Shown here: in pieces, positions 28,354 through 62,000 of the stretch | Layout of the letters: each line of letters opens with the position of its first letter | How positions within the stretch are numbered: position 1 is the stretch's first letter | Program-made: the position numbers and the translations under genes | Assembly: GCA_000004985.1 (NCBI GenBank) | Contig: GG738847.1 | Length of the DNA stretch: 64,000 nucleotides | From: Naegleria gruberi | Lineage: Eukaryota | Strand: one strand, 5' to 3' | The notes under the pieces: generated by a model | Database searches by the model: none | What the model saw: the letters and a program-made list of their open reading frames with translations, nothing else | What the model was told of the DNA's origin: nothing

Positions 28354-28471
28354 GGCTACGGCCATATCACGATGAATGCACCTCATCCCGTCCGATTTGA
28401 GAAGTTAAGCATCGTCGAGCCACATCAGTACTGAGGTTGGAGACAACTTGGGAACCTGTGGTGCTGTAGTC
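28354..28471 (+). rRNA. 5S ribosomal RNA (copy 1) with a downstream T6 terminator
   Basis: GGCTACGGCCATATCACG...CATCCCGTCCGATTTGAGAAGTTAAGC...GTACTGAGG...GGGAACCTGTGGTGCTGTAGTC followed by TTTTTT. The 3' end can pair with the 5' end (helix I). Upstream at 28290-28350 is a degenerate partial copy of the 5S 5' end (cggttatatcacgatgaa). Confidence 0.9.
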
Positions 28472-28854
28472 TTTTTTGAATCTGTGAATACTGTAACAAT
28501 ATTTGAAGACTCAAACTCGAAATTTGAAGGTTTATTGATCAACCACAAGTTTCTATTTCTAAATAGATAAAATTCAAAGGTGATATATAGATGGTCACGT
28601 AGCAAGCTTTTCTAAACAACAAACTTACTGAACCAACAATCAATAGATTCGTTGCCTTCACTGTTCATACAGTCAAAGACTGTAGCGGGATAGTCGCCAT
28701 ATTCCTGGCAGGCTTCCCGTCTTAATTGTTTTACAAATGAAATAACAAACTTAATTTTATGGAGACTCACACTTTATTCTAATGTTAAATAATAATTAAA
28801 AGCAAAATTGTTTCAAAAATTTAGCCTTTTTAAAGAAATTGATTTCTGTTTCAA

Positions 28855-32642: not shown

Positions 32643-33086
32643 TTACTGGCCATTTAAATTAAAATAGAGAGATAGTACGCAGTGAGTGAGGAAAAATTTG
32701 TACGCCCTAAGACACACCATCGGGATTGACAAAGAGTGCATGGACATACATTGTTATTCCAAGCTTGAGGAGCGCAAACATTCCATAATGGAATTTTTCA
32801 AACTTCCAAACAGTGGTTCACATTTTCAATGTTTCTCTTTTTGTTGAAGAGGAAAATTACTCTCCGTCCTCCTACTAATACTAATACAGCAACCTTCTTT
32901 AATTCTCTTCTTTCTCTAACTGCCATTGAATACAAAGTGTTGAGGGAGTAGATGCTTGTTCTTCAGTGGTGGCACTAGCTCTTGATGTGAAAGGGTTAGA
33001 CATTTTCTAGTATTACATAATACTTGTTTGGCCGTATATTGAAAACTCTTAATTTACTAGAAATTGGAAGTATTAAGGAAGTGAAT

Positions 33087-33204
33087 GGCTACGGCCATAT
33101 CACGATTCATGCACCTCATCCCGTCCGATTTGAGAAGTTAAGCATCGTCGAGCCACATCAGTACTGAGGTTGGAGACAACTTGGGAACCTGTGGTGCTGT
33201 AGTC
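33087..33204 (+). rRNA. 5S ribosomal RNA (copy 2) with a downstream T5 terminator
   Basis: Differs from copy 1 only at about 2 positions (gattcat versus gatgaat). Shares the upstream motif gtattaaggaag with the copy-1 locus. Confidence 0.9.
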
Positions 33205-33265
33205 TTTTTACAAAATTTGAAAAACAAGGTAAATTAATTTGGTAGTTTTGTATCTTATGTTTATT

Positions 33266-34510
33266 TTAAACTGAAAATCTCTTACTTTTAATCATAAAAA
33301 CCAATAATTGATACAATAGGAAATCGGAGAGTTCTTTTCTTGAAGGAACTTGATCAATAAAGGCAAGATTATTTTCACAATAATTTACAATGGGAAGTAA
33401 GCTAACATCCATCTTTTCAACTGATTTGATAGGTTTGGAATAATTGCCAAACAAGACATCTGTTTCTCTTTGATCAATTTCTTCGAATACATGACCATCA
33501 AAAACAAAACTCTTGAAATCTTTCAATGTTCTTTCCTTATTTAGGAAAGAGGAAGAATTATCGAGAGCTGTTGCTACCAAAACAGTTGGGACGCCTTTCT
33601 TCCATGAGTATTCATTCAACTCTGAGAATAAGTTTCGTGCAGGAGGTGAGGTAGTTATCTTGTCATGACTAGCACAATACAGAATAATGTTTGGTTTGGA
33701 AATTGGATTAGGATTTGAAATAAATACTTCATTGTTGTCCATACCACTTCTGACTTTTCCTTTAAAGATTCTTCCGAGAATTTTCTTTGCCGGTTCAATA
33801 TCTGATTTCAAAGGTTCTCTCAATTGATTCCAAAATCCAGGACAATCAATAATCTCAATTTCTACGTGCTTTCCATCAATTTCCTTTGAAAGCTTCAAAT
33901 TGAAAATTTGTGTAGTGACAGTTTGTTCAGATTTGTAACATTTAATCATTTCTCTCTTTCCTTCTGTCAAGACGAAACCCAAATTTTGTTCAAGTAAATC
34001 AACAATTGCTTTGAGGAGAGTTGACTTTCCTTCACCACAACCTCCACAAGTTAAAAATTTGAAAGTTTCTTCAACCTTTAGTAAATTTAGGAATGATTGC
34101 TGAAGGGTTTTAATTCTGGACGAAAGTGGAATATTCTTTTCGATTTCTAAGGAGTAAAGCTTGGTTTTGAATTCAACTCCTTGTTGATCCTTGATGGTCG
34201 CATAAATTTCTTCCTTAAATTTTGACTTGTCGTTGGAAGAAAGGAAGAGAATATTCGAATTGAAAGCTTCCAATATTTTCGTATTATTCTTGGTGAATAG
34301 TGCAACATGATAAGGAACCTGACCCAAGTTTCCTGAGAGATGAAACTCAACCATTGCAAGGGAATCATAAACTTTTGAAATGGATACGGACCATTCAGGT
34401 TTACGTTTGGTTTCTTCTTGTTTAGTTTGATTATCTGTTTGATAGGTTTTGTACATGTAACCAGCTGCAATAGATGCAACACTGAAAAGAGCAGGAAGAA
34501 GGTAATTCAT
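33266..34510 (-). CDS. P-loop GTPase of the paraseptin type (AIG1/GIMAP/IRG/septin-like) with an N-terminal membrane anchor
   Basis: G1 TCGGCGEGKSTLLKAI, G3 IDCPGFW (compare septin DTPGFG and IRG DLPGIG), G4-like TALD. Hydrophobic N-terminus MNYLLPALFSVASIAAGYMY. Confidence 0.55.
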   Translation of the reverse strand: MNYLLPALFSVASIAAGYMYKTYQTDNQTKQEETKRKPEWSVSISKVYDSLAMVEFHLSGNLGQVPYHVALFTKNNTKILEAFNSNILFLSSNDKSKFKEEIYATIKDQQGVEFKTKLYSLEIEKNIPLSSRIKTLQQSFLNLLKVEETFKFLTCGGCGEGKSTLLKAIVDLLEQNLGFVLTEGKREMIKCYKSEQTVTTQIFNLKLSKEIDGKHVEIEIIDCPGFWNQLREPLKSDIEPAKKILGRIFKGKVRSGMDNNEVFISNPNPISKPNIILYCASHDKITTSPPARNLFSELNEYSWKKGVPTVLVATALDNSSSFLNKERTLKDFKSFVFDGHVFEEIDQRETDVLFGNYSKPIKSVEKMDVSLLPIVNYCENNLAFIDQVPSRKELSDFLLYQLLVFMIKSKRFSV

Positions 34511-34749
34511 TTAGTTTTTTGTATTAGAGAAATTGATCAGTCCAACAACTTCGAATGATTTATTCGAAACGTGTGTAAATTTTTGATTCTCTTTGATCCA
34601 ACCAATAGAAATCGTCCTGCAACACTTTACAATGGAATTCCAAAGTCAGTTTTTGTAATTCTTGATCAAAAATGGTCTTTGATCAATAAATACCTTCATT
34701 TGTTTGCATCACGTTTTCCACAAACTATAGTTTAGTTTCTTTTAAAAAA

Positions 34750-35565
34750 ATGATCAAAACAATTCTTGCTACCATTGCAGCAATTTCAACTTCAATTGGT
34801 TTTGGAGTTTTGGCTACACAACCCACGAGACAAGATCCTTATGGGGAATCTGTTATTTCACAAAATTCGAATAATCCTTCGTCTATTGTTCAAACTAATC
34901 TAGATGCCGCTATCAAGTATGAAAATTTGCAGCGTGAAGTTGAAATTATCAATCAAAAAATTCAAGATTTAATGTCACAACTTTCCACTCAGGGAAAATT
35001 AATCGAAACTTTGAAAACTAAACTGGAAATGGTAGAATTGAAATGGGTAACTTCTATTGTGGAATTAACAAGGAAACAAGATGGAGTTATTTGGACTTGT
35101 TTGATTGCAGGAGGTGGATTATTAACAATTTTCCTTATTTACAAGTTTATTTTAAGGAAGAAGAAAGTTTTTTCAAAGTTATTCGAAACAAATTCATCTC
35201 CTCCTCAGAAAGTCCCAAATCCAAAACCTTCTACAATTCTGTACTATTACCTTGCAGAGAAGGAATTTTTTGATGTACATTTTCAAAAAATACTCTCCTC
35301 ACTCAATTCTCATTCGAATGTTAAATTTGAAAGAGTTTCCAATCAATCTCAAAGTCATTTCACAATTCTAAACTTTAGCAATAGACAGAGAATGGGTAAT
35401 AACGTTCCAGATTCCATCAATCAATACCTTTCCATTGGTGGGAATGTGAACAGCACTGAATGGGCTAATAATGAAGTGAGATTATTTAGTGATGAGAATG
35501 GAAATGTTGATTGGAATGAAGATGTCATTGAAACTCTTATTAAGCTGGGAAATAAATTAGATTAA
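34750..35565 (+). CDS. hypothetical type I membrane protein (signal peptide, coiled coil, one TM helix, Asn-rich tail)
   Basis: aaaaaaATG start, then MIKTILATIAAISTSIGFGVLA, a heptad region, TM helix VIWTCLIAGGGLLTIFLIYKFIL followed by RKKK. Confidence 0.55.
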   Translation: MIKTILATIAAISTSIGFGVLATQPTRQDPYGESVISQNSNNPSSIVQTNLDAAIKYENLQREVEIINQKIQDLMSQLSTQGKLIETLKTKLEMVELKWVTSIVELTRKQDGVIWTCLIAGGGLLTIFLIYKFILRKKKVFSKLFETNSSPPQKVPNPKPSTILYYYLAEKEFFDVHFQKILSSLNSHSNVKFERVSNQSQSHFTILNFSNRQRMGNNVPDSINQYLSIGGNVNSTEWANNEVRLFSDENGNVDWNEDVIETLIKLGNKLD

Positions 35566-35744
35566 ACTATATTCCTCCTGTTTTTCCAAGAAATTGTTGT
35601 CATAAAAAAAGGATTTGTTAATACTATCTACCAAATACCATGCCAATTAACAAGAGTTAAAGTGATATGCTGCATAAATTTTAAAATTAATTGGATTAAT
35701 ACACCAGTTCGTTATCATTCAAAGGCAAACTCTCTTTGAAACAA

Positions 35745-38489
35745 CTATTTGTATTCAAGTAAATTATTAAAAACCCATCTAACAATTATGTTTTTAACTG
35801 CAAGACTCTTAATTTCAAGTGGTTGTGCAAAGGCATGACTAATCTTTGCTTCTTTGTCACCATTAAAACTAATCAAAGCATCAATAATATTGTCCAAGTC
35901 ACGTCCTTTCAATTTGAGGTTTTGGGACTCTTCTTCATCCAATCCAACACCTTGCTCAGCATCTAATAATACCACTTTAACTTGCTCAGGGCTCCAACTT
36001 TTTGGCCTGCTTTTATCCAATAGATTATCTTGGATAATTAACATTCCACAAGCTCTTTGTAATGTTTTTGAGTTTGATGCTTGATTGGCATGCATTTGAG
36101 AGGATCCAATATTTGATGTCAAAGGAGTGTATGAAGATTCAATGCTTGAAAAAGAAGGTTTTTGGGGGAATCCAACATGATAACAAATCATTTTTCTATA
36201 CAGTTCTTCCTTTTTCTGGGTGTGGTCATGAAACAGAGTATACAAATCCTTGCTTAATAAATTCTCTAAGCCTTTTTTAGTTAACAATAGAACTTCGAAA
36301 CCTCCTTTTTTCAATTTCAACCAAGATTTTGTTCCAAATTTTGGCTTTGTGTAGCTTATTGTTTCATTCTCTAGATAGCATGTTCCTGTTATAAGAAGAG
36401 ATCCATAATTATTCGCATTTTTTTCTATAACTCGAAGTACGCTATCTGAATATCCCATAACTACCATTATTACTGTGAAGTGTAAATTTTCTCCATTCAA
36501 AGATGGCTTTTCTTCAACTGAATAGGTATTGGGTAAAAAAGCCGATGCTTGATTGATTTCTTCTTGCAACTTTGATAAAGAAAAATCCTTTTCATAGAGT
36601 TTCATTTCAAATAATAACAATTTTCTTAATACTTGTAATGGAGTTTTGTTCAGTGCTATCAATACATCAAATCCACTATTAATTTCTCCAGGAATAGCTG
36701 CACAAAATTGATTTTCACTCATAGCATCGTCTAACACTGAGGTGAATGATACGTAATTTGGATGTAGGTAATTACTAAACCCCATCTCTTGATCGTACTG
36801 TTGTTTTGTGCTAATTGGTGAAAATCCAGGGATTAAAATATTTTGTGTTAAAAAATTGGGAGGTAACTCTAAACTACTAAAAAATGTTTCTTTGAAAATC
36901 CCGCCACATAAATCCCCAAATACAGTAATTTCGTTCGTTTTTGTAAAAGAGAGAGTCAATATTTGTTCAGCTAATAAATCAATGACTGATAATTCCAACG
37001 CCTTTGAAGTGTGGAGTAAAATGGAATTATTTTGCAACAAATTATAGCGCACTCCACTTATTGATGTTTTGAATTTTGATAATTTCATTAAAATATCATC
37101 TTTTAGTAGCTTGGGTATATTAATCTTGACAGTCTTATCTTCCATGACTTGAAAATGCATTTTTAAATATGGAAGTATTTCAATAAAGTTTCTGTGCCTC
37201 TTATTAAAGTACAATTTCTAAAACTCATTAAACTGAAAACTAAAGAATTCTACACTTACTGTTTGAGATGGTATGGCAATACCAAAGGAATGGAGTAAAT
37301 ATAAATGAGCTACCAATTTGGCTTGTTCATCATTGCGCAGAGCAATCGTCACATCGTGTTGTTTTTGCTCAGATTTTTCAATAGCTTCACATATTTTCTC
37401 TTTTGATGATAAATTATTCAAGTTACGCAAAATGCTATTGAATGCATTTTCCATTATTCTTGGAGCAGTTCCAGTATATTCCACAAGAATATCTATGAAA
37501 TCATCAATATCATTTAAGCCTAACAATTGTAAAGCATCCAATAGTGTGATACACGAATTACCTTTTTGAACATGACTCTGTCTGAGCATGATTTCGACGA
37601 CCTGGTTTTCCATAGGTGACAGAAATACAAGACAGTAATCAGAAGGTGGACTTTTTTTAACATCTTGATTCTCTGTCAAAGCTAAGTGTACAGGAATATG
37701 ACCACTAAATATAACAGTGCTCTTATAGGGGATCAGAAGTGGCATTACTTCATTCCATAATTCTAGAAAGCGACTCAAATAAATATCACAACCTTCTTTA
37801 CATGTTGTCCATTTCGAGTCTTGCAATAGTTGCCCAAAATTATTCTGTAAAATTCCATCTACTTCATCAACAAGTACTAAATATCCTTCAGGTAAGGATG
37901 AATCAATATTTAAAGCTTCAAAAATAAGGTTAGCTCCATAATCGTTTTGGTTTGCAAAATCCAACATCTTTTGGTAAAAATCTTGTCTTTTCTGTAAAAG
38001 ATCTTGTGATCCATTTGGTTGGAATTTTGTTATAAATTGCTTGCAATATTCCTTAACCACGAAATCAGCAATTTTTTTGCTCATATCTGAAATACTTTCT
38101 TCCGAAGAGACTTTAAATAATCTAAAATCCAATTCAAATAGCTGTAAATCTTTCACCCATTCCGATTGTTGATCCCATTTTCCATATACCTCTCTAAATC
38201 TTCTGACCAAGGTTGTTTTACCAATACCAAAGGTTTGAAAAAGCGACACTAATTTAGCTTGGCTCAAGTTTTGTTGCTTCTTGTTTTGCACTAAAGTATT
38301 AACAATTCGTTCCGACTCATTTTCACGATTAACAAATTTAAGTTGTAATGCAGAGTTTTTGAGGTCTTCTTTTGTTATTAATACATGAGTCTGTGGAGAA
38401 GAGAAAGGTTTGGTGGTTTCGGGTTCTTGTTTTTGCTTTTTGTTTTTAGGACCATCACCTGCCATTACACATTTTGTGCATTTTTTCAT
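35745..38489 (-). CDS. STAND/AAA-type P-loop NTPase (about 913 aa), two exons (37260..38489, 35745..37217) separated by a 42-nt intron whose 3' TAG is the in-frame stop seen in the track
   Basis: The two track ORFs lie in the same frame, separated by one TAG. GTAAGT follows ..PSQT at 37259 and the 42-nt intron ends TTTTAG at 37218-37220. Walker A FQTFGIGKTTLVRRF. True ATG at 38489. Confidence 0.6.
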
Positions 38490-38559
38490 TATTGTTTGGC
38501 GAGAAGATCACCCGAAATCCCAAACAACAACTTTTATTTCTTGTTGGAATTCCAAGTAT

Positions 38560-39125
38560 TAAATCCACTTAGGGTTATTCACGAATTGAAAATGGAATGG
38601 AATAGAATGGAATGAAATTTTTCTAAAAAATTCTATCCAAATAATTCCGTGTCCAGAATTTTTTTTTAGAATTGGTTGTGAACGTTTATTACATTATTCA
38701 AACGTTGTAAACGTTTTAACGTTTTTTAAATGTTTAAAACGTTAAATATGTTTTTCTTGTAATAAGGAAACCATTATTGGAGGCCTCCAATAATCATCCC
38801 TATATTGTGATGATATAGTTGAGCTTGCTTAATGTCCTTAATATCTGTGTGGGCGGGAATCAAACTGATTTTCCATTTCTTTCAAATGTGTAAATACGTT
38901 TTCAACATTTAGAACGTTTCAAACGTTTTTAACGTGTTTAATCAGTTTAGTTTAATAAATTCTTTTCAAAAATTAAAAATAACCACCAACGAAATAATTG
39001 GAATTTTTTCACGGAATCATTCTGAATTATTCTAAAAAATTCTGAAAAATTCCGTCAATTCCATCAATTCCATCAATTCCGTCAATTCTTTCCAATTCGT
39101 GAATAACCCTAACTAGTAATTGATT
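38560..39125. mobile_element. 565-bp inverted-repeat element (MITE-like)
   Basis: Imperfect terminal inverted repeats of about 90 bp, each starting TTAGGGTTATTCACGAATTG and containing GGAAT/ATTCC satellite-like runs. Inside are two subterminal arrays of the palindromic hexamer AACGTT and a perfect 22-bp central palindrome, attattggagg|cctccaataat, at 38773..38794. No ORF. It sits between two diverging genes. Confidence 0.5.
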
Positions 39126-39364
39126 TGACATTTTTTTCTAAAGATTTTAGGTTCTTTTTACGTGGCCCATTTCCAGCCATACAAATGATCCTTTTTTCAA
39201 TTCAAGTTGAAAAATAAGTTGAAATTTACATGTTCATTTGAATTTATTGCTTTTATTTTGTCTAATATAGTGTAAATTTACTGTCCAACAGTGGAGTCCT
39301 TGTACAGGAAATTGTTGCCTTCCTTGCAAATGATGAAGATAAATCCAACATTGGTCAAATTCTC

Positions 39365-39817
39365 ATGATGAGATTAGTTTGCAAAGATTGGAACGAAACT
39401 TTTATTAATTCTCATGATTTCTGGTACAGTATGATGATTACCAATTTGGATAAGGGTATGAAAGCAAGAGGAATTGAAGAGAAGGTTGAAATTCTTTCAC
39501 ATCCCAATCGAAACAATACTCAGTTCATGTTAAATTGTATTCGAAACTGTTTTCTTGCTCAACAATCGATTGACTGTTTGAAATCAGTGGAAGCCGAACA
39601 ATCAATGTGTTATGAGCCTGCTATCCTTAACGAATCCAATGACGAATTAGTTTCCGAAATGATTCGCCAACTTTCACCTTACATCTTTATCCAGAAAACC
39701 TCTTTTGATTTCTTTTCTTATGATCAATCAGAATGTGAATATGATTTTATCATTCCAAATATTCAAGGAAATACCGAATTGACTGAACTATATTTTAAAG
39801 TTTATAGATGCGATTAA
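39365..39817 (+). CDS. F-box domain protein (5' end uncertain)
   Basis: The reading frame is open from about 39264 and encodes ..VLVQEIVAFLANDEDKSNIGQILMMRLVCKDWNETF, an F-box consensus (..LVCK.W). The first ATG lies inside the F-box, so there is either an upstream exon (acceptor ..tccaacag|TGG at about 39291) or a non-AUG or upstream start. Confidence 0.5.
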   Translation: MMRLVCKDWNETFINSHDFWYSMMITNLDKGMKARGIEEKVEILSHPNRNNTQFMLNCIRNCFLAQQSIDCLKSVEAEQSMCYEPAILNESNDELVSEMIRQLSPYIFIQKTSFDFFSYDQSECEYDFIIPNIQGNTELTELYFKVYRCD

Positions 39818-39943
39818 GGATGTGGTAATGGTTCACTACTAAGATCTATTGAAGTAGTTTTCCAAGAAGAAAAAGAAATTCTAAAAAATGAAGTTTGCTA
39901 CGAGTATGATGGCTCACGCTCAGAATACGTTGCAGATAAGGAG

Positions 39944-40126
39944 ATGATTAAGGTTGTTATGGAGAGAATTGGGTTGAGTGCAGAAATGATAAAATCTAAA
40001 GCTTGTTTCGATGAATTTATGATTGCATTGTATTATAAAGCAGTTGTGGGAGTAATTCCTATTGCTCTATGTGAAAGAGATATGTTTTATATTGATAGAA
40101 CAAGCAGAATAAAAGATATTATGTAA
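39944..40126 (+). CDS. possible small ORF (60 aa), or the 3' part of a frameshifted roughly 80-aa gene starting at the aaaaaATG at 39886
   Basis: ORF with hydrophobic/helical composition. An a-run ATG 58 nt upstream opens a 19-codon ORF in the +1 frame (MKFATSMMAHAQNTLQIRR). Confidence 0.25.
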   Translation: MIKVVMERIGLSAEMIKSKACFDEFMIALYYKAVVGVIPIALCERDMFYIDRTSRIKDIM

Positions 40127-40197
40127 ACGGCCAATGCAAAACGACAAAATTATTGACAAAAAAAATAAAATAAAAGGAATATGGTTATGAACCAGAT

Positions 40198-41556
40198 TTA
40201 TTGCTTCTTATTAGCCTTCATTCTTTCCCTTAATTTATTCTTAGAATCGGATGAATTCATTTGAGCTTTTTGTTGTTCCATTCTCAATTTCTCGTAATGT
40301 TTTACTGTCCAGTCACCTCCTTCAATTGAGTAAAAGTCCATTGGATAGATTGGTCTCCATTCAGTGGCTGTTAAAGCTACCTCAGCTTCATAGGCAGTCA
40401 GTAATGGTTTATCAAAGAAGTGACCCCAATCGATTGAGAGACGAGGACAAGCAATTTGAATCCAACACTCAACATCGTGGAATAGTTGAAGTTTGCTTGG
40501 GAAAATTTCACTCAAAAGGAGAGAAACATATGGAATATTCTTTTCGTTCAGTAATCGTTCAATAGTTTCAAGAATTTTTGGAGAACCTTGTCTACCCAAA
40601 GTTCCTAGAATTACACCAAACTTTTTGGCTTTCTTTGCCTTTTCAATGGCATCTTGTCTGATGGAAAATAATTGTGGATGATCATAGTGTTCCTCTGTGA
40701 ATTTCTTTCCATATGGATCATATTTGTAATATTTCAATTCTGGATTTTGAATCATGACACTTTCCAAATGGAATCTACCATCTCCCAAATAAACCATAGT
40801 TTCAATTTGATGATTTTTAGCTAAATCTTTTGGACTTGTGCAACCCAGAACTTCACCAGGTGACAATGGTTTAACTTGAGGAATAAATACAGGAGTTGTG
40901 AAATGTTTGTCCAATTCTGCCTTGGCAGTTCTTAAACTTGAAACAAATTGAATAGTTGCAACCATAGCCATTTTGGTTTCTTTTGGAAAGTTGTTAATCA
41001 TTGATTGAACAAAATAATTAATATCAATTTGAATATCCACAAAAACGTATAGAATATTCTTAATGCAACAATCACTGACAGGAACAAGACAACTGTGAGC
41101 ATAATGCACCATGAAATCAGCACCCAAAGCTCTAGCAGTAAGATCATCTATACAGCATGCTCCGTATGTGACATCTCCCATAATTACTGTACTTGTTTCT
41201 GGACAAAATCTTTCAATAATATCACTAATCACACAACTAAACAAGAGCAATCCTTCAGGAAATTGCAAAGCAACTCTCTTTGGTTTAATTTGTTGAATTC
41301 TATGAATAGTTTTATGAATTTCAAAATTATAATTTGTTGGAAGTGTTTCCTTGATGAGTCTATTCAATTCTTCGTTTTCTAAAATTGAAGCAGGAACACT
41401 TTGTTGTAATTTAATACTAGATGAAAGATTAACTCCTGCATATGGATTTGATTGTTGTTGTTGTTCAGGAGTTTGTCCAATATTGTTGTTATTGTTATTA
41501 CTATCTTCCGATGATGAAGAAGAAACGGCAACAAGACTTGTTTCTTGATTTTCCAT
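40198..41556 (-). CDS. DPH1: diphthamide biosynthesis protein 1 (DPH1)
   Basis: [35 protein letters not shown], typical of DPH1/DPH2 radical-SAM-like family members. Length and C-terminus fit DPH1. aaaaaaaATG start. PolyN/Q N-terminus. Confidence 0.85.
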
Positions 41557-41757
41557 TTTTTTTTATTCGTTTCAAAATTTTTATTAATTTACAATTTTAA
41601 ATTATTATATACTAGTCATAATAATAATATTAAATTATTATCACTTCTTCATGGTTATTAATTTTTTAATTATAATTCTATATGGAGGACTTGATAGTTT
41701 TCTATTTTTCATTGTTATTATTTTAATAAAATTACTTGATGATTATTTACATATAAA

Positions 41758-43599: not shown

Positions 43600-44075
43600 A
43601 TTGATCTCGAGTGCCGGGAATTGAAAACTCTCGTTCATATCATGGCTACCGGGAATGAAACTTCCTAATTTGGAAGATGACTTCAACAACAATAATAACA
43701 ACAAAACAAATTAACAGTAATAAATTAATGGTTATTAATGTTTATTAAATAGTGACCGTTAGGTCACTGATTGTTAATTAATTATTGATGATTTGTTGTT
43801 GAACAGATACTAACTGTAATAAAAACACATTGCAATCACCGTGACGCCAAATTAACATTTAATAATAACACATTATTAATATAATACCGTGTCGCCAAAT
43901 TCCTTGATAATTATTCATAACTGTAACTTCTTGATCAAAAGCACTCGAGTAATTTAACACAGTCAAAACTCTCGTTCATACCATGGGTACCGGGAATGAA
44001 ATTTCCAAATAAGGAATGACCGATATCATTCAACTAACAAAACAAATTGAACCCGGGTCGCCAGAGTGACAGTCT
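43600..44075. repeat. cluster of short direct repeats in an intergenic region
   Basis: A 42-bp unit aaaactctcgttcata(t/c)catgg(c/g)taccgggaatgaaa(c/t)ttcc occurs at 43624..43665 and 43965..44006. gtg(a/t)cgccaaatt occurs at 43841, 43889 and roughly 44056. Confidence 0.6.
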
Positions 44076-50072: not shown

Positions 50073-50152
50073 TCCCAAGCTGTGTTGATTTCTTCATCGT
50101 CCAACATTGAGTTTGTTTACAATCCTCAATTTTAACCATAAAAAGAACCGTA

Positions 50153-51217
50153 ATGGAAAGACTCAACCGTAAACCACACACTCTCAAACACACACCACAA
50201 CAATTGTTTACGGTTGAGTCTTTCCATTACGAGAAATTGAGAAAGGAGAAGGAAGAACAAGTAGCATTGGAGCTAAAAAAGTTGAGAAAGGAAAAAAAAG
50301 AAAAGGAAAAGCTTGCACAAGAAAATAAGGAATTGCAAAGAAAACTTGAAATGATTGAAAGAGAAAAACTTTTTAAATTGGAGCAAGAGAATGAACTTTT
50401 AAAGAAGGCAACTCAAGAAGTAAAGCAAGAAGAAAAGAAGCAAGATAAACAAGAAACGAAATTGAAAAGAAAGGTTAATGATGAGGAAGTTTCCACACCA
50501 ACAAAGAAAACTAAAACAGATCCAACCATTACAGTTGTGAATAATTATTATGCTAGTCCATCAAGTATTGAAACAAAAAAGCAATCAAGCCCAAAGACTG
50601 TAGCTACTCAAGAGGGTTGCAAACACAAACGCATTTACGATCAATTTATTTACATCTACTGTTCAATGACAGGTCAGAAACCTAAAGAGTTTATTGACAA
50701 TCCAAAACAGGTTCAAGAATTTATTACCTTTTTTGAATTGAAATTGAAACCGAAAACACTTGTAAAGAACTTCAAACCTGATCCAAATATGACAACCTCT
50801 GACTATCAGGAAATTCTCTTCTACCTTCTCAACAGCATGAAGGGTAAAGAAGGTGAAAAGAAACAAGATGAAGTCATATCTGGTATTTTAAAGGGCAAGT
50901 TGAAAAGCAAATTTAACAAAGAGCTTGTGCCATACCTCATCGCTTTTGCCTATAACAATGTAGAAGGAAAAAAGCAATTACAAGGAAAAATGGAGGATTT
51001 TTTGAATGATAAAACTAAAGTTGATTCATTCATAAAGACATACAATCTCGATTTAAATCCAGAAACAAACAAACCATACCTTAAAGCTGAAACTATTTCC
51101 AATAACAAAGCTAAGATTATGGACATTGTAAAGAATCCAAAAACTCTGAAAGATTTGTTGAATGAAGCATGCAAGGAGGTGATTCAAAGATTCTTTGGCT
51201 CTCCAAAAACTAAATAG
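50153..51217 (+). CDS. hypothetical protein with a Lys/Glu-rich coiled-coil N-terminus and a conserved-looking C-terminal domain
   Basis: 354-aa ORF. The ATG lies inside a 26-bp perfect inverted repeat (see finding), so a start further downstream is possible. Confidence 0.5.
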   Translation: MERLNRKPHTLKHTPQQLFTVESFHYEKLRKEKEEQVALELKKLRKEKKEKEKLAQENKELQRKLEMIEREKLFKLEQENELLKKATQEVKQEEKKQDKQETKLKRKVNDEEVSTPTKKTKTDPTITVVNNYYASPSSIETKKQSSPKTVATQEGCKHKRIYDQFIYIYCSMTGQKPKEFIDNPKQVQEFITFFELKLKPKTLVKNFKPDPNMTTSDYQEILFYLLNSMKGKEGEKKQDEVISGILKGKLKSKFNKELVPYLIAFAYNNVEGKKQLQGKMEDFLNDKTKVDSFIKTYNLDLNPETNKPYLKAETISNNKAKIMDIVKNPKTLKDLLNEACKEVIQRFFGSPKTK

Positions 51218-59013: not shown

Positions 59014-62000
59014 TTAAAGTTCAGAATCATCATCACCAATCTTTTTCCTCACTGTTGACTTCTTTAACGAGACACCACCACCAAGAATGTTTGTACCAGC
59101 TTTTGGATCGTCCTTCTTGGCAGTTGATGCTGTGAGACGACTTGTTGTACTTGCATTTTTGAGATCTTGTTTAAGTTTTTCCTTCTTAAGCTTTTCTTCT
59201 TCTGCCTTCTTTTTCTTTTCGTCGGCCTTTTGTTGTTGAATATTCTTGTCGGCAGCTTGTTTAAATTGTTGAACAAAGGCATCAATCATTTGGAAGAATT
59301 TGTCTGGTTCTTTCATAAGATCGTCCTTAGTTTCATTGTACAATTCTGCGAGCTCTGTTAATTGATTCTTCATAGCTTCCATATCTTCCTTGATCTTGTT
59401 AATGGTATTGTCAACCTTCTCACAGAATGGTTGCATTTTTTCAACAAATTTGTCTCCATCAAGTTGTTCTTCAATGGCTTCTCTAATTTGAGTTTGTAAA
59501 ATGTTTTGTCCTTTTTTAAGTTCTTCCAAATCATCTTCCAAAGAGGAAATGTTCACTCTGGTGGCAGCTTGAACGTGTTCTAATTCTGTATCAAAACCAG
59601 CAACTTCTGGTTCGTTGTCTTGGACAAACTTGACAATATATTGGAGGAGAGAACTCTTACCGTCACCAGTCTTAGTATCATTCAACTTGGCAAGTGATTT
59701 GAGTTTAAAACCATAACTGATCTTATTCTTTTGTTTACCATTCAAAAAGTTACCAATTGTAAGAATAATACCCAACAATCTGATGAAATTCTTAGAGTTT
59801 TGCATTTCTTTACAGGCTAATGTAAGATTTTGAATATCAGGTCTAATTTTACCACTGATATCAGGGAATTTAAATTTAAATTCCCACGCATCAAGTCTTC
59901 CTTTGAGATTTGGAATTCCATCCATGACTTTGAAGAATTTATCAGGTTCTGCTAATTCATCCATTGGTCCATCATATGTATTGACAGTATCAATTTCTTC
60001 TCTCTCAGGAGCAATTTGCTTAATTGTACCAACATTATCAGAAGTAACAACAGCTTCATCGAGAGCAATAATAGCTTTCTTCAATGATTCATAACTTGTA
60101 CCTCTCAATGAACCTAATTGAAGGGAAACAGCATAACTACGTTTTGCATCCAACATTGATTTAACTTCCTTCTTCTTTTCTGTTGGCTTAACTTCTTTGT
60201 TTGGATCTTCCTTTTTCTTTGTAGAGAAACATGATGTCAAATGATCCAAATCTATTTCCTCAATAATGGAATTTGTCTTATTTGCAATACCTTTTGTCAT
60301 AAATACGGTATTGGTAAGTGTTGTCTTATTAATTTGGTCAAAGTGAACATTTCTGGTTGCTTCTTTTGGAGCTCTATCTGGAAGAACAGGTAATCCACCA
60401 CCAACAGCAGCACCTCTTCCAAAACCTCCTGGAACCATTGGTACACCTCTTCCAAAACCTGGTGGCATAGGAACACCCATACCAGGTGGCATTGGTACAC
60501 CTCCCATTCCTGGAGGCATTGGAACACCACCACCAGGAGGAGGAGGCACACCACCCATACCAGGAGGAGGAGGCACGCCTCCCATACCAGGTGGAGGATT
60601 GGAACACCTCCCATTCCTGGAGGCATTGGAATACCTGATCCTAAAGGAGGAGGAACACCGCCCATACCAGGTGGAGGAGGAACACCAAAACCTGGAGGAG
60701 GAGGAATACCACTATCCATTCCTGGAGGCATTGGAATACCTGATCCTGGAGGTGGTGGAATACCACCAAAACCTGGAGGAGGAGGAACAAATCCCATATC
60801 ACCACCAGGTGGAGGAGGAACAAATCCTGAGCCACCAGGAGGTGGAGGAACAAATCCAGTAGATCCAGGAGGTGGAGGCACGCCAAAATCACCACCAGGA
60901 GGTGGAGGCACAAATCCTGAGCTACCAGGTGGAAGTGGTACTGAACCACCAGGTGGAGGAGGAACGAATCCTGTCGAACCAGGTGGAGGAGGAACAGATC
61001 CAGTACTAGCTACTGTGCTAGTTGGAGGTACCTTAATAGGATTACTTTTGATAGATGAAATTTCTTTTTCGATGGCCGCAATAGTCTCCTTTAGCTTGGT
61101 TTCGTTTTCTTGATGCTTTTTGAGATCTGCTTGTAACTTTTCAATCTTTGATTTTCCTTCCTTTTCAACCTTTTCGGTTTCGTCTGTCACCTCCTTAACT
61201 TGATTTTTAACATCATCGTCTTGATCGCTTGAGTCTAATTTCTTTGTCCAAGTTTCCTTTTCCTCATGGAGCTTAATTTTTGATGCCACAGATTCAGAAA
61301 GTTCCTTACTGATTGTCTCTATTTCAACCTTCAGGTCTTCAATCTTCTTCTTGTTATCTTCACATTCTTTTTGAATATTTTGTTTCTCCGATTCGAGTTT
61401 TTGAACAAGTTCATTAATAATTTGCTCATTTTGTTGTCTTTCGTACTCAATTTTGTGTAACTTTTCATTCTGTTCTTGTTTAAATTTGTATTGAGAGTCT
61501 TCTAAATCAATAATTTGACTTTGGTTCAATCTGACTTGTTCTTCCAACTTGATTTCCAAATTAGTCCAATATTCTACATTTCCTGTTTCTCTGGACTGCT
61601 TTAAACTTCTCTTAACAAGTGCTAACATATTTTTCCAAGCTTCAAGAACGGTTTCTCTGTCCAAATCTCCATCTTTCATCTTTAAAACAATGTTAAGTAA
61701 TCTTTGAAGGATGTTAAGCATACTGGTCATGGATGCTTCGTTTAACATCAAGTTCAAAAGTTTTACAATTTCAGTTGGGTCACTTAAATCTTTAAGGACA
61801 GCGTGAGCATCTCCAAGATCACTGATTTTGTCTTCGAATCTTTCAATTTCTTTACTCAGATCCATTAATGTTTCTTCATTTTCATTACCTCCATAAGAAT
61901 TGGCAAGTTCATTCTTCAATTCATCTACTAACTCAACCATACCTAAATTTCTCATTTCCTTCTTGATGAGAGATTTACTACCTTCATCAGGTGCATTTGT

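Follow-up and report, generated by a model that had tools for sequence, protein, structure and literature searches.

A 544-bp nested inverted-repeat element between two divergent ORFs of Naegleria gruberi, a candidate MITE- or foldback-type transposon

The short intergenic region between two diverging open reading frames (ORFs) of Naegleria gruberi contains an inverted-repeat structure that is real, statistically secure and nested. It lies in a stretch of DNA of 64,000 nucleotides, here called the window. The best-supported reading, to which we give a probability of about 0.5, is that the structure is a non-autonomous cut-and-paste DNA transposon of the MITE or foldback type, or a recent relic of such an element.

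The limits of the element are set by its termini. The left terminal inverted repeat, TTAGGGTTATTCACGAATTG, occupies 38569-38588 on the plus strand, and pairing reaches 38592 with one mismatch; the right terminal inverted repeat, CAATTCGTGAATAACCCTAA (39093-39112, minus strand), is its perfect reverse complement, with pairing that extends inward to 39089. The inverted match is 20/20 nt, or 23/24 when lengthened to 24 nt, and the outer boundary is sharp. At up to 3 mismatches, the 20-nt terminus has just two matches in the whole window, a result that was obtained in 0 of 100 shuffles. By an estimate from base composition, chance pairs of 20-nt inverted-repeat length within 1 kb are expected ~5e-4 times per 64-kb window. 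The first-pass annotation had reported termini that are inverted copies, and these figures bear it out. Its length of 565 bp (38560-39125) has to be corrected, since the positions of the termini give an element of 544 bp (38569-39112). It had also noted a telomere-like TTAGGG at the termini; the hexamer is there, but as a single copy per end and not as a tandem repeat, and it occurs six times in the whole window.

Inside the termini, the two arms share one order of blocks, seen when the left arm is set against the reverse complement of the right: terminus, GGAAT-type array, T-rich block, ATTCCGTG, TTGGTNGT block and AAACGTTT array. On the left, the subterminal (GGAAT)n run (38591-38618, plus strand) has a 5-bp unit in 5.6 copies. 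The right subterminal array (39048-39088, minus strand) comprises 4.6 copies of the 9-bp unit AATTCCATC, with the consensus AATTCCRTC, which is GGAATTGAY on the minus strand. The two have the GGAAT core in common and differ in period (5 vs 9 bp). GGAAT runs therefore do adjoin both termini, as had been claimed, but with 5.6 and 4.6 copies they are short motif arrays and not satellite. Further inward, the 8-mer ATTCCGTG (38644-38651, plus strand) has an exact inverted partner, CACGGAAT, at an equal relative position in the right arm (39010-39017, minus strand).

The innermost blocks are two mirrored arrays of palindromic sites. The true repeat unit, AAACGTTT, is a self-complementary 8-mer, of which nine sites are found at no more than one mismatch within 250 bp, plus two at 2 mismatches, giving six sites on the left and five on the right with a spacing of about 9 bp. 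The left array (38680-38744) has sites starting at 38680, 38700, 38709, 38717, 38728 and 38737, with spacings of 20, 9, 8, 11 and 9, and five of the six contain an exact AACGTT. The right array (38894-38937) has sites starting at 38894, 38903, 38912, 38921 and 38930, an exact 9-bp period, and an exact AACGTT in two of the five; in inverted orientation it aligns with the left array at ~80% over 49 nt. Altogether, exact AACGTT is present seven times in the element (38681-38927; 5 left, 2 right), compared with 18 times in the whole window. The description of two mirror-arranged arrays thus stands, but the count of at least 10 AACGTT copies does not hold for exact copies (7) and is reached with degenerate ones included (11). 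In an unbiased 6-mer count, AAACGT/ACGTTT was the most enriched 6-mer of the intergenic region, observed 10 times against 0.28 expected. Homology between the arms is not confined to the termini: local alignment of the remaining arm sequence gives z = 7.4 against shuffles, and the inner arms are ~70-80% identical, with many indels.

Between the arrays lies a perfect 22-bp palindrome, ATTATTGGAGGCCTCCAATAAT (38773-38794), which contains two inverted CCAAT pentamers around AGGCCT. It had been placed at the centre of the element; it is indeed perfect, but its midpoint (38783.5) falls 57 bp to the left of the midpoint between the termini (38840.5). The palindrome is followed by an asymmetric unique core of ~100 bp (38795-38893), which has no counterpart in the left arm and which holds the sole GGGCGG of the intergenic region, at 38851. 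The element is AT-rich, and its longest internal ORF is 34 aa. The earlier claim that it has no coding capacity is therefore confirmed, internal ORFs being 34 aa or shorter. As single-stranded DNA, it is predicted to fold into one long hairpin (-84 kcal/mol, z = -7.1), and 0 of 100 shuffles fold as well. No Rfam family reached its gathering score in the element, where the best matches had E-values of at least 3.

The source of the DNA is clear from its genes. Seven long ORFs in the window are identical to annotated N. gruberi NEG-M proteins, for example DPH1 (EFC49761) and two actins. GC content across the window is 29-41%, and the standard genetic code fits. An alternative code was considered, since in-frame stops were seen, and was rejected on that fit. 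The window also carries two tRNA genes and two 5S rRNA genes. The latter are dispersed copies at 28354-28472 and 33087-33205, both on the plus strand, 95% identical, 4.7 kb apart and with Rfam scores of 105 and 100 bits; an actin gene and a tRNA-Phe gene lie between them. Two further repeats of the window lie away from the element. The longest perfect hairpin in the window is formed by a 26-nt inverted repeat (50149-50174 and 50206-50231) with a C/A-rich loop of 31 nt; the start codon of gene EFC49557 (ATG at 50153) falls within it, and it is partly coding. In addition, a 52-nt direct repeat (AAAACTCTCGTTCATAYCATGG.TACCGGGAATGAAA) is present at 43624-43675 and 43965-44016, with 88% identity between copies 341 bp apart. 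This repeat is intergenic, downstream of a Ras-like gene, and has no Rfam match.

The ORFs that flank the element are both orphans, and look-ups by exact protein returned no identical entry in the protein collection for either. The left gene (35745-38489, minus strand) encodes a P-loop protein of ~900 aa; 80 nt separate its ATG (38489) from the left terminus. An in-frame TAG in this gene falls inside a canonical 42-nt intron, GTAAGT...TTTTAG, at 37218-37259 on the minus strand; the gene is therefore probably intact. The same intron is supported by a gap relative to the homologue in Willaertia. A weak AAA_22 match is the only Pfam hit of the protein, and two homologues were found, one in Willaertia magna (65% identity) and one a 58% paralogue on another N. 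gruberi scaffold. The 65% identity is unusually high for a comparison across genera.

The right ORF (39308-40126, plus strand; first ATG at 39365) belongs to an orphan family and has an in-frame stop at 39815-39817. It is absent from the annotated protein set for the source scaffold. Over 39605-40120 it matches at 93% the N. gruberi protein P0132, an intact copy that is encoded on a separate scaffold of 1,315 bp. The right ORF is probably a pseudogene copy, and the pair would reflect either a recent duplication or divergent haplotypes. The 1,315-bp scaffold might extend as far as another copy of the element. The element was first described as lying between two diverging genes; two diverging ORFs are present, but the one on the right is unannotated and interrupted. 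An F-box identity for the right ORF, suggested by eye from LxxVCKDW, was rejected as it has no Pfam support. Also rejected was a duplication of the flanks, which was considered from the likeness of MAGDGPKNKK in the left gene to MAGNGPRKKN, which is encoded by a small ORF on the minus strand beyond the right end of the element; this likeness is not significant (z = 0.9).

The features just described are those by which the transposon reading is favored. Perfect, sharp termini beside diverged inner arms are the pattern expected if the ends alone are constrained. Also counted for a transposon are the motif blocks in mirror order, the length of 544 bp, the AT-richness, the non-coding nature, the strong predicted hairpin and the position close to genes. 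In Ac/Ds (AAACGG hexamers), En/Spm and foldback elements, the transposase is known to bind arrays of short repeats just inside the ends. Without the element the intergenic region would measure 331 bp, a length inside the 164-906 bp found for the window's seven other divergent gene pairs, and this too is counted for an insertion. No comparable inverted structure was found in the other intergenic regions of the window, so this inverted-repeat design is not the usual promoter layout in N. gruberi.

If the element is a transposon, its history would have begun with insertion into a short intergenic region (~330 bp beforehand) between the two divergent orphan genes. A transposase encoded elsewhere in the genome would recognize the 20-bp termini. 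The GGAAT-type units and the AAACGTTT sites, with their ~9-bp spacing, may serve as extra binding sites that bring the two ends together, after which the element would be excised and reinserted. The genome offers some precedent for such a system: the repeat content of N. gruberi is 5.1% (PMC6125883), a full-length MuDR-type element has been reported in it (PMC3164196), and its methylated repeats include DNA transposons (PMC12344493).

Target-site duplications, which could point to a superfamily, were sought at seven boundary choices and at lengths of 2-10 bp. None of 4 bp or longer was found at any of the seven. Two shorter candidates appeared, TA if the ends are taken as GGG/CCC and ACT if they are taken as TAGGG/CCCTA, and both are weak. 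A 3-bp flank match is expected by chance in about one in ten such searches. The TA candidate carries little weight because it sits within the extended inverted repeat, but with GGG...CCC as the true ends, the TA on either side could possibly be a target-site duplication of the Tc1/mariner type. The characteristic duplications of hAT (8 bp), Mutator (9-11 bp), piggyBac (TTAA), Merlin and P are absent, which argues against these and similar superfamilies. PIF/Harbinger, with its TWA direct repeat, was also rejected, the flanks being TTA (left) and TAA (right), an inverted pair and not a direct repeat.

Further copies would be expected of a mobile family, and the searches made so far count against the transposon reading: the element is present once in 64 kb, and no relatives were found in the metagenome and viral contigs that were scanned. 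Within the window, neither a second copy nor any partial similarity was detected, whether 3 mismatches were allowed or blastn was run with a word size of 7 nt. The seven other divergent intergenic regions of the window have no similarity to the element or its flanks. Beyond the inverted pair of the element, the terminus does not recur in the window, where no transposase with matching termini was found. When a 17-mer of the terminus was searched in metagenome contigs, 21 isolated matches were obtained. These are regarded as chance, since none extends past the 17-mer, none has a second, inverted copy, and the contigs are mostly GC-rich. Viral contigs were scanned four times, with the terminus, the palindrome, the 9-bp array and the paired termini, and no related sequence emerged; four matches to the 9-bp array were repeats in unrelated, apparently coding sequence, with no likeness beyond the array.

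Orthologous sites were sought in related organisms. The Willaertia homologue of the left gene has a different neighborhood, and no comparable element lies upstream of it. The upstream sequence in W. magna (JBEGDK010000055, 6000-9000) is ~3 kb of DNA with a GC content of 9-18%. The DPH1 locus of N. fowleri has just DPH1 and a single small gene in common with the window, and there is no synteny on the element side. Close relatives of the window come from an N. gruberi-like strain in the environmental metagenome ERZ929261, where two contigs (L001 and L026) are 95-99% identical to the window; they cover 33082-37746 and 40174-41614 and so flank the element without reaching into it. In these contigs (L001 1437-1582, L026 3942-7896) synteny is lost directly 3' of DPH1 and again past the 5S gene at 33084, a sign that close strains differ in structure. 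In the literature searched, we found no description of this sequence or of any Naegleria MITE family.

The first-pass annotation had proposed three explanations, namely a MITE, a replication origin or centromere-like module, and an elaborate bidirectional regulatory region. A MITE or foldback-type element fits the anatomy best. A regulatory role is the main alternative, which we judge possible at well under even odds. Under it, an old inverted duplication of ~230 bp would have been retained in place as a shared upstream region, forming a locus-specific palindromic bidirectional module. Dimeric transcription factors would bind cooperatively to the arrays, the CCAAT palindrome and the 20-bp terminal motif; AAACGTTT, with its ACGT core of the T-box type, could be a bZIP site, and the GGAAT/GAA arrays resemble heat-shock elements, although these factor assignments are motif resemblance only. 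The placement suits such a role: the two divergent ORFs have their 5' ends on either side of the element, the left ATG being 80 nt away, and the 20-bp terminal motif is equally oriented upstream of each flanking gene. So do the enrichment of AAACGT/ACGTTT at sites ~9 bp apart, near one helical turn, the CCAAT on both strands of the palindrome and the GGGCGG in the core. The CCAAT-bearing 22-bp palindrome and the helically spaced arrays would suit a transcription-factor platform as well as they suit a transposon, and this is counted against the latter. Selection acting in place would likewise give perfect termini beside diverged arms, and there is no convincing target-site duplication here. The GGAAT motif is also not confined to the element, for a 12-bp palindrome centred on GGAATTCC lies outside the termini at 38544-38555. 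Against all this, the other divergent intergenic regions of the window have no mirrored arrays, long inverted repeats or shared sequence, and co-regulation of two working genes is doubtful because the right ORF is unannotated and has an in-frame stop. In addition, no sign of conservation was seen: the N. fowleri DPH1 region is not syntenic here, and nothing similar lies upstream of the left gene's homologue in Willaertia. A related proposal, which we hold to be slightly less probable still, is a single-copy control module of nested symmetry (terminal motif, GGAAT, AAACGTTT arrays and CCAAT palindrome), kept by selection or derived from a domesticated transposon, that would drive the two divergent orphan genes; promoter architecture in Heterolobosea is essentially undescribed. 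As a separate observation, the 12-bp palindrome, TTGGAATTCCAA, occurs exactly or with 1 mismatch at 38544-38555, 34632-34643 and 59910-59921 (3 copies vs 0.7 expected). Two of the three copies are in short intergenic regions between divergent genes, so this palindrome may be a promoter motif.

The remaining explanations are improbable. One is a hairpin-RNA or small-RNA locus, in which read-through or an internal promoter would yield a hairpin processed by RNAi, or in which the core would encode a small RNA. The strong predicted hairpin agrees with this, as does a C/D-box-like UGAUGA...CUGA pair noticed by eye in the core. However, any inverted repeat yields a hairpin fold, the boxes have no terminal stem, and Rfam gave no match in the element at an E-value below 3 and none at a gathering score; we consider such a locus very unlikely. 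Least probable, by a little, is a replication origin or a centromere-like or telomere-related module, in which the palindrome would sit between iteron-like arrays. Its resemblance to viral and plasmid origins, with a palindrome between repeated binding sites, is formal only, and the palindrome is off-centre. TTAGGG in the termini could recall a telomere, but it is found once per end and non-tandem, and the runs of 5.6 (GGAAT) and 4.6 (9-bp unit) copies are far from satellite. No feature of the locus speaks to replication or segregation, and, to our knowledge, point centromeres of 0.5 kb are known in budding yeasts only.

What the element would mean depends on which of these readings is correct. 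If it is a MITE, it would represent a routine, so far undescribed repeat family in N. gruberi, a genome with few classified transposons. Such a family would then help in annotating repeats and in tracking variation among strains, and the matching transposase could be traced through its termini. If the element is single-copy and conserved, it would be among the first candidate cis-regulatory architectures in Heterolobosea, and AAACGTTT, GGAAT and the 20-bp terminal box would provide concrete motifs for factor binding.

Several known systems can be compared with the element. Bidirectional promoters of the CCAAT/bZIP type (T-box AACGTT) are like it in their divergent 5' position, inverted CCAAT pentamers and arrayed palindromic sites with an ACGT core, spaced at about one helical turn. 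However, the known promoters of this kind are not bounded by perfect 20-bp inverted repeats and have no mirror homology over whole arms. Among transposons, MITEs derived from Tc1/mariner (Stowaway-like) come to mind if the ends are read as GGG...CCC, since TA then flanks both. This TA lies inside the extended inverted repeat, where it is indistinguishable from terminus, and if the terminus is TTAGGG, the flanks become AC and CT. The alternative end, TTAGG..., resembles mariner termini such as the TTAGGT of Hsmar1, a possible lead.

The closer likenesses are to elements with repeats beneath their termini. MITEs and terminal-inverted-repeat transposons with subterminal arrays, such as Ac/Ds of the hAT superfamily and En/Spm with its 12-bp motifs, share with the element the short perfect termini, the subterminal motifs in mirror order, the non-coding sequence of a few hundred bp, the AT-richness, the proximity to genes and the strong hairpin potential. 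The element differs from hAT in having no 8-bp target-site duplication, from CACTA in having neither a CACTA-type terminus nor a clean 3-bp duplication, and from both the Ac/Ds and En/Spm motifs in that its own AAACGTTT motif is itself palindromic. Drosophila Foldback (FB) and the foldback-like MITEs are the other comparison. The arms of the element are much shorter (~180-230 bp) than those of FB and carry two different motif arrays, with periods of 5 vs 9 bp. Nevertheless, it is like FB and its relatives in having long imperfect arms built of short tandem sub-repeats and, like FB, it has a unique middle section and the capacity to fold back over its whole length.
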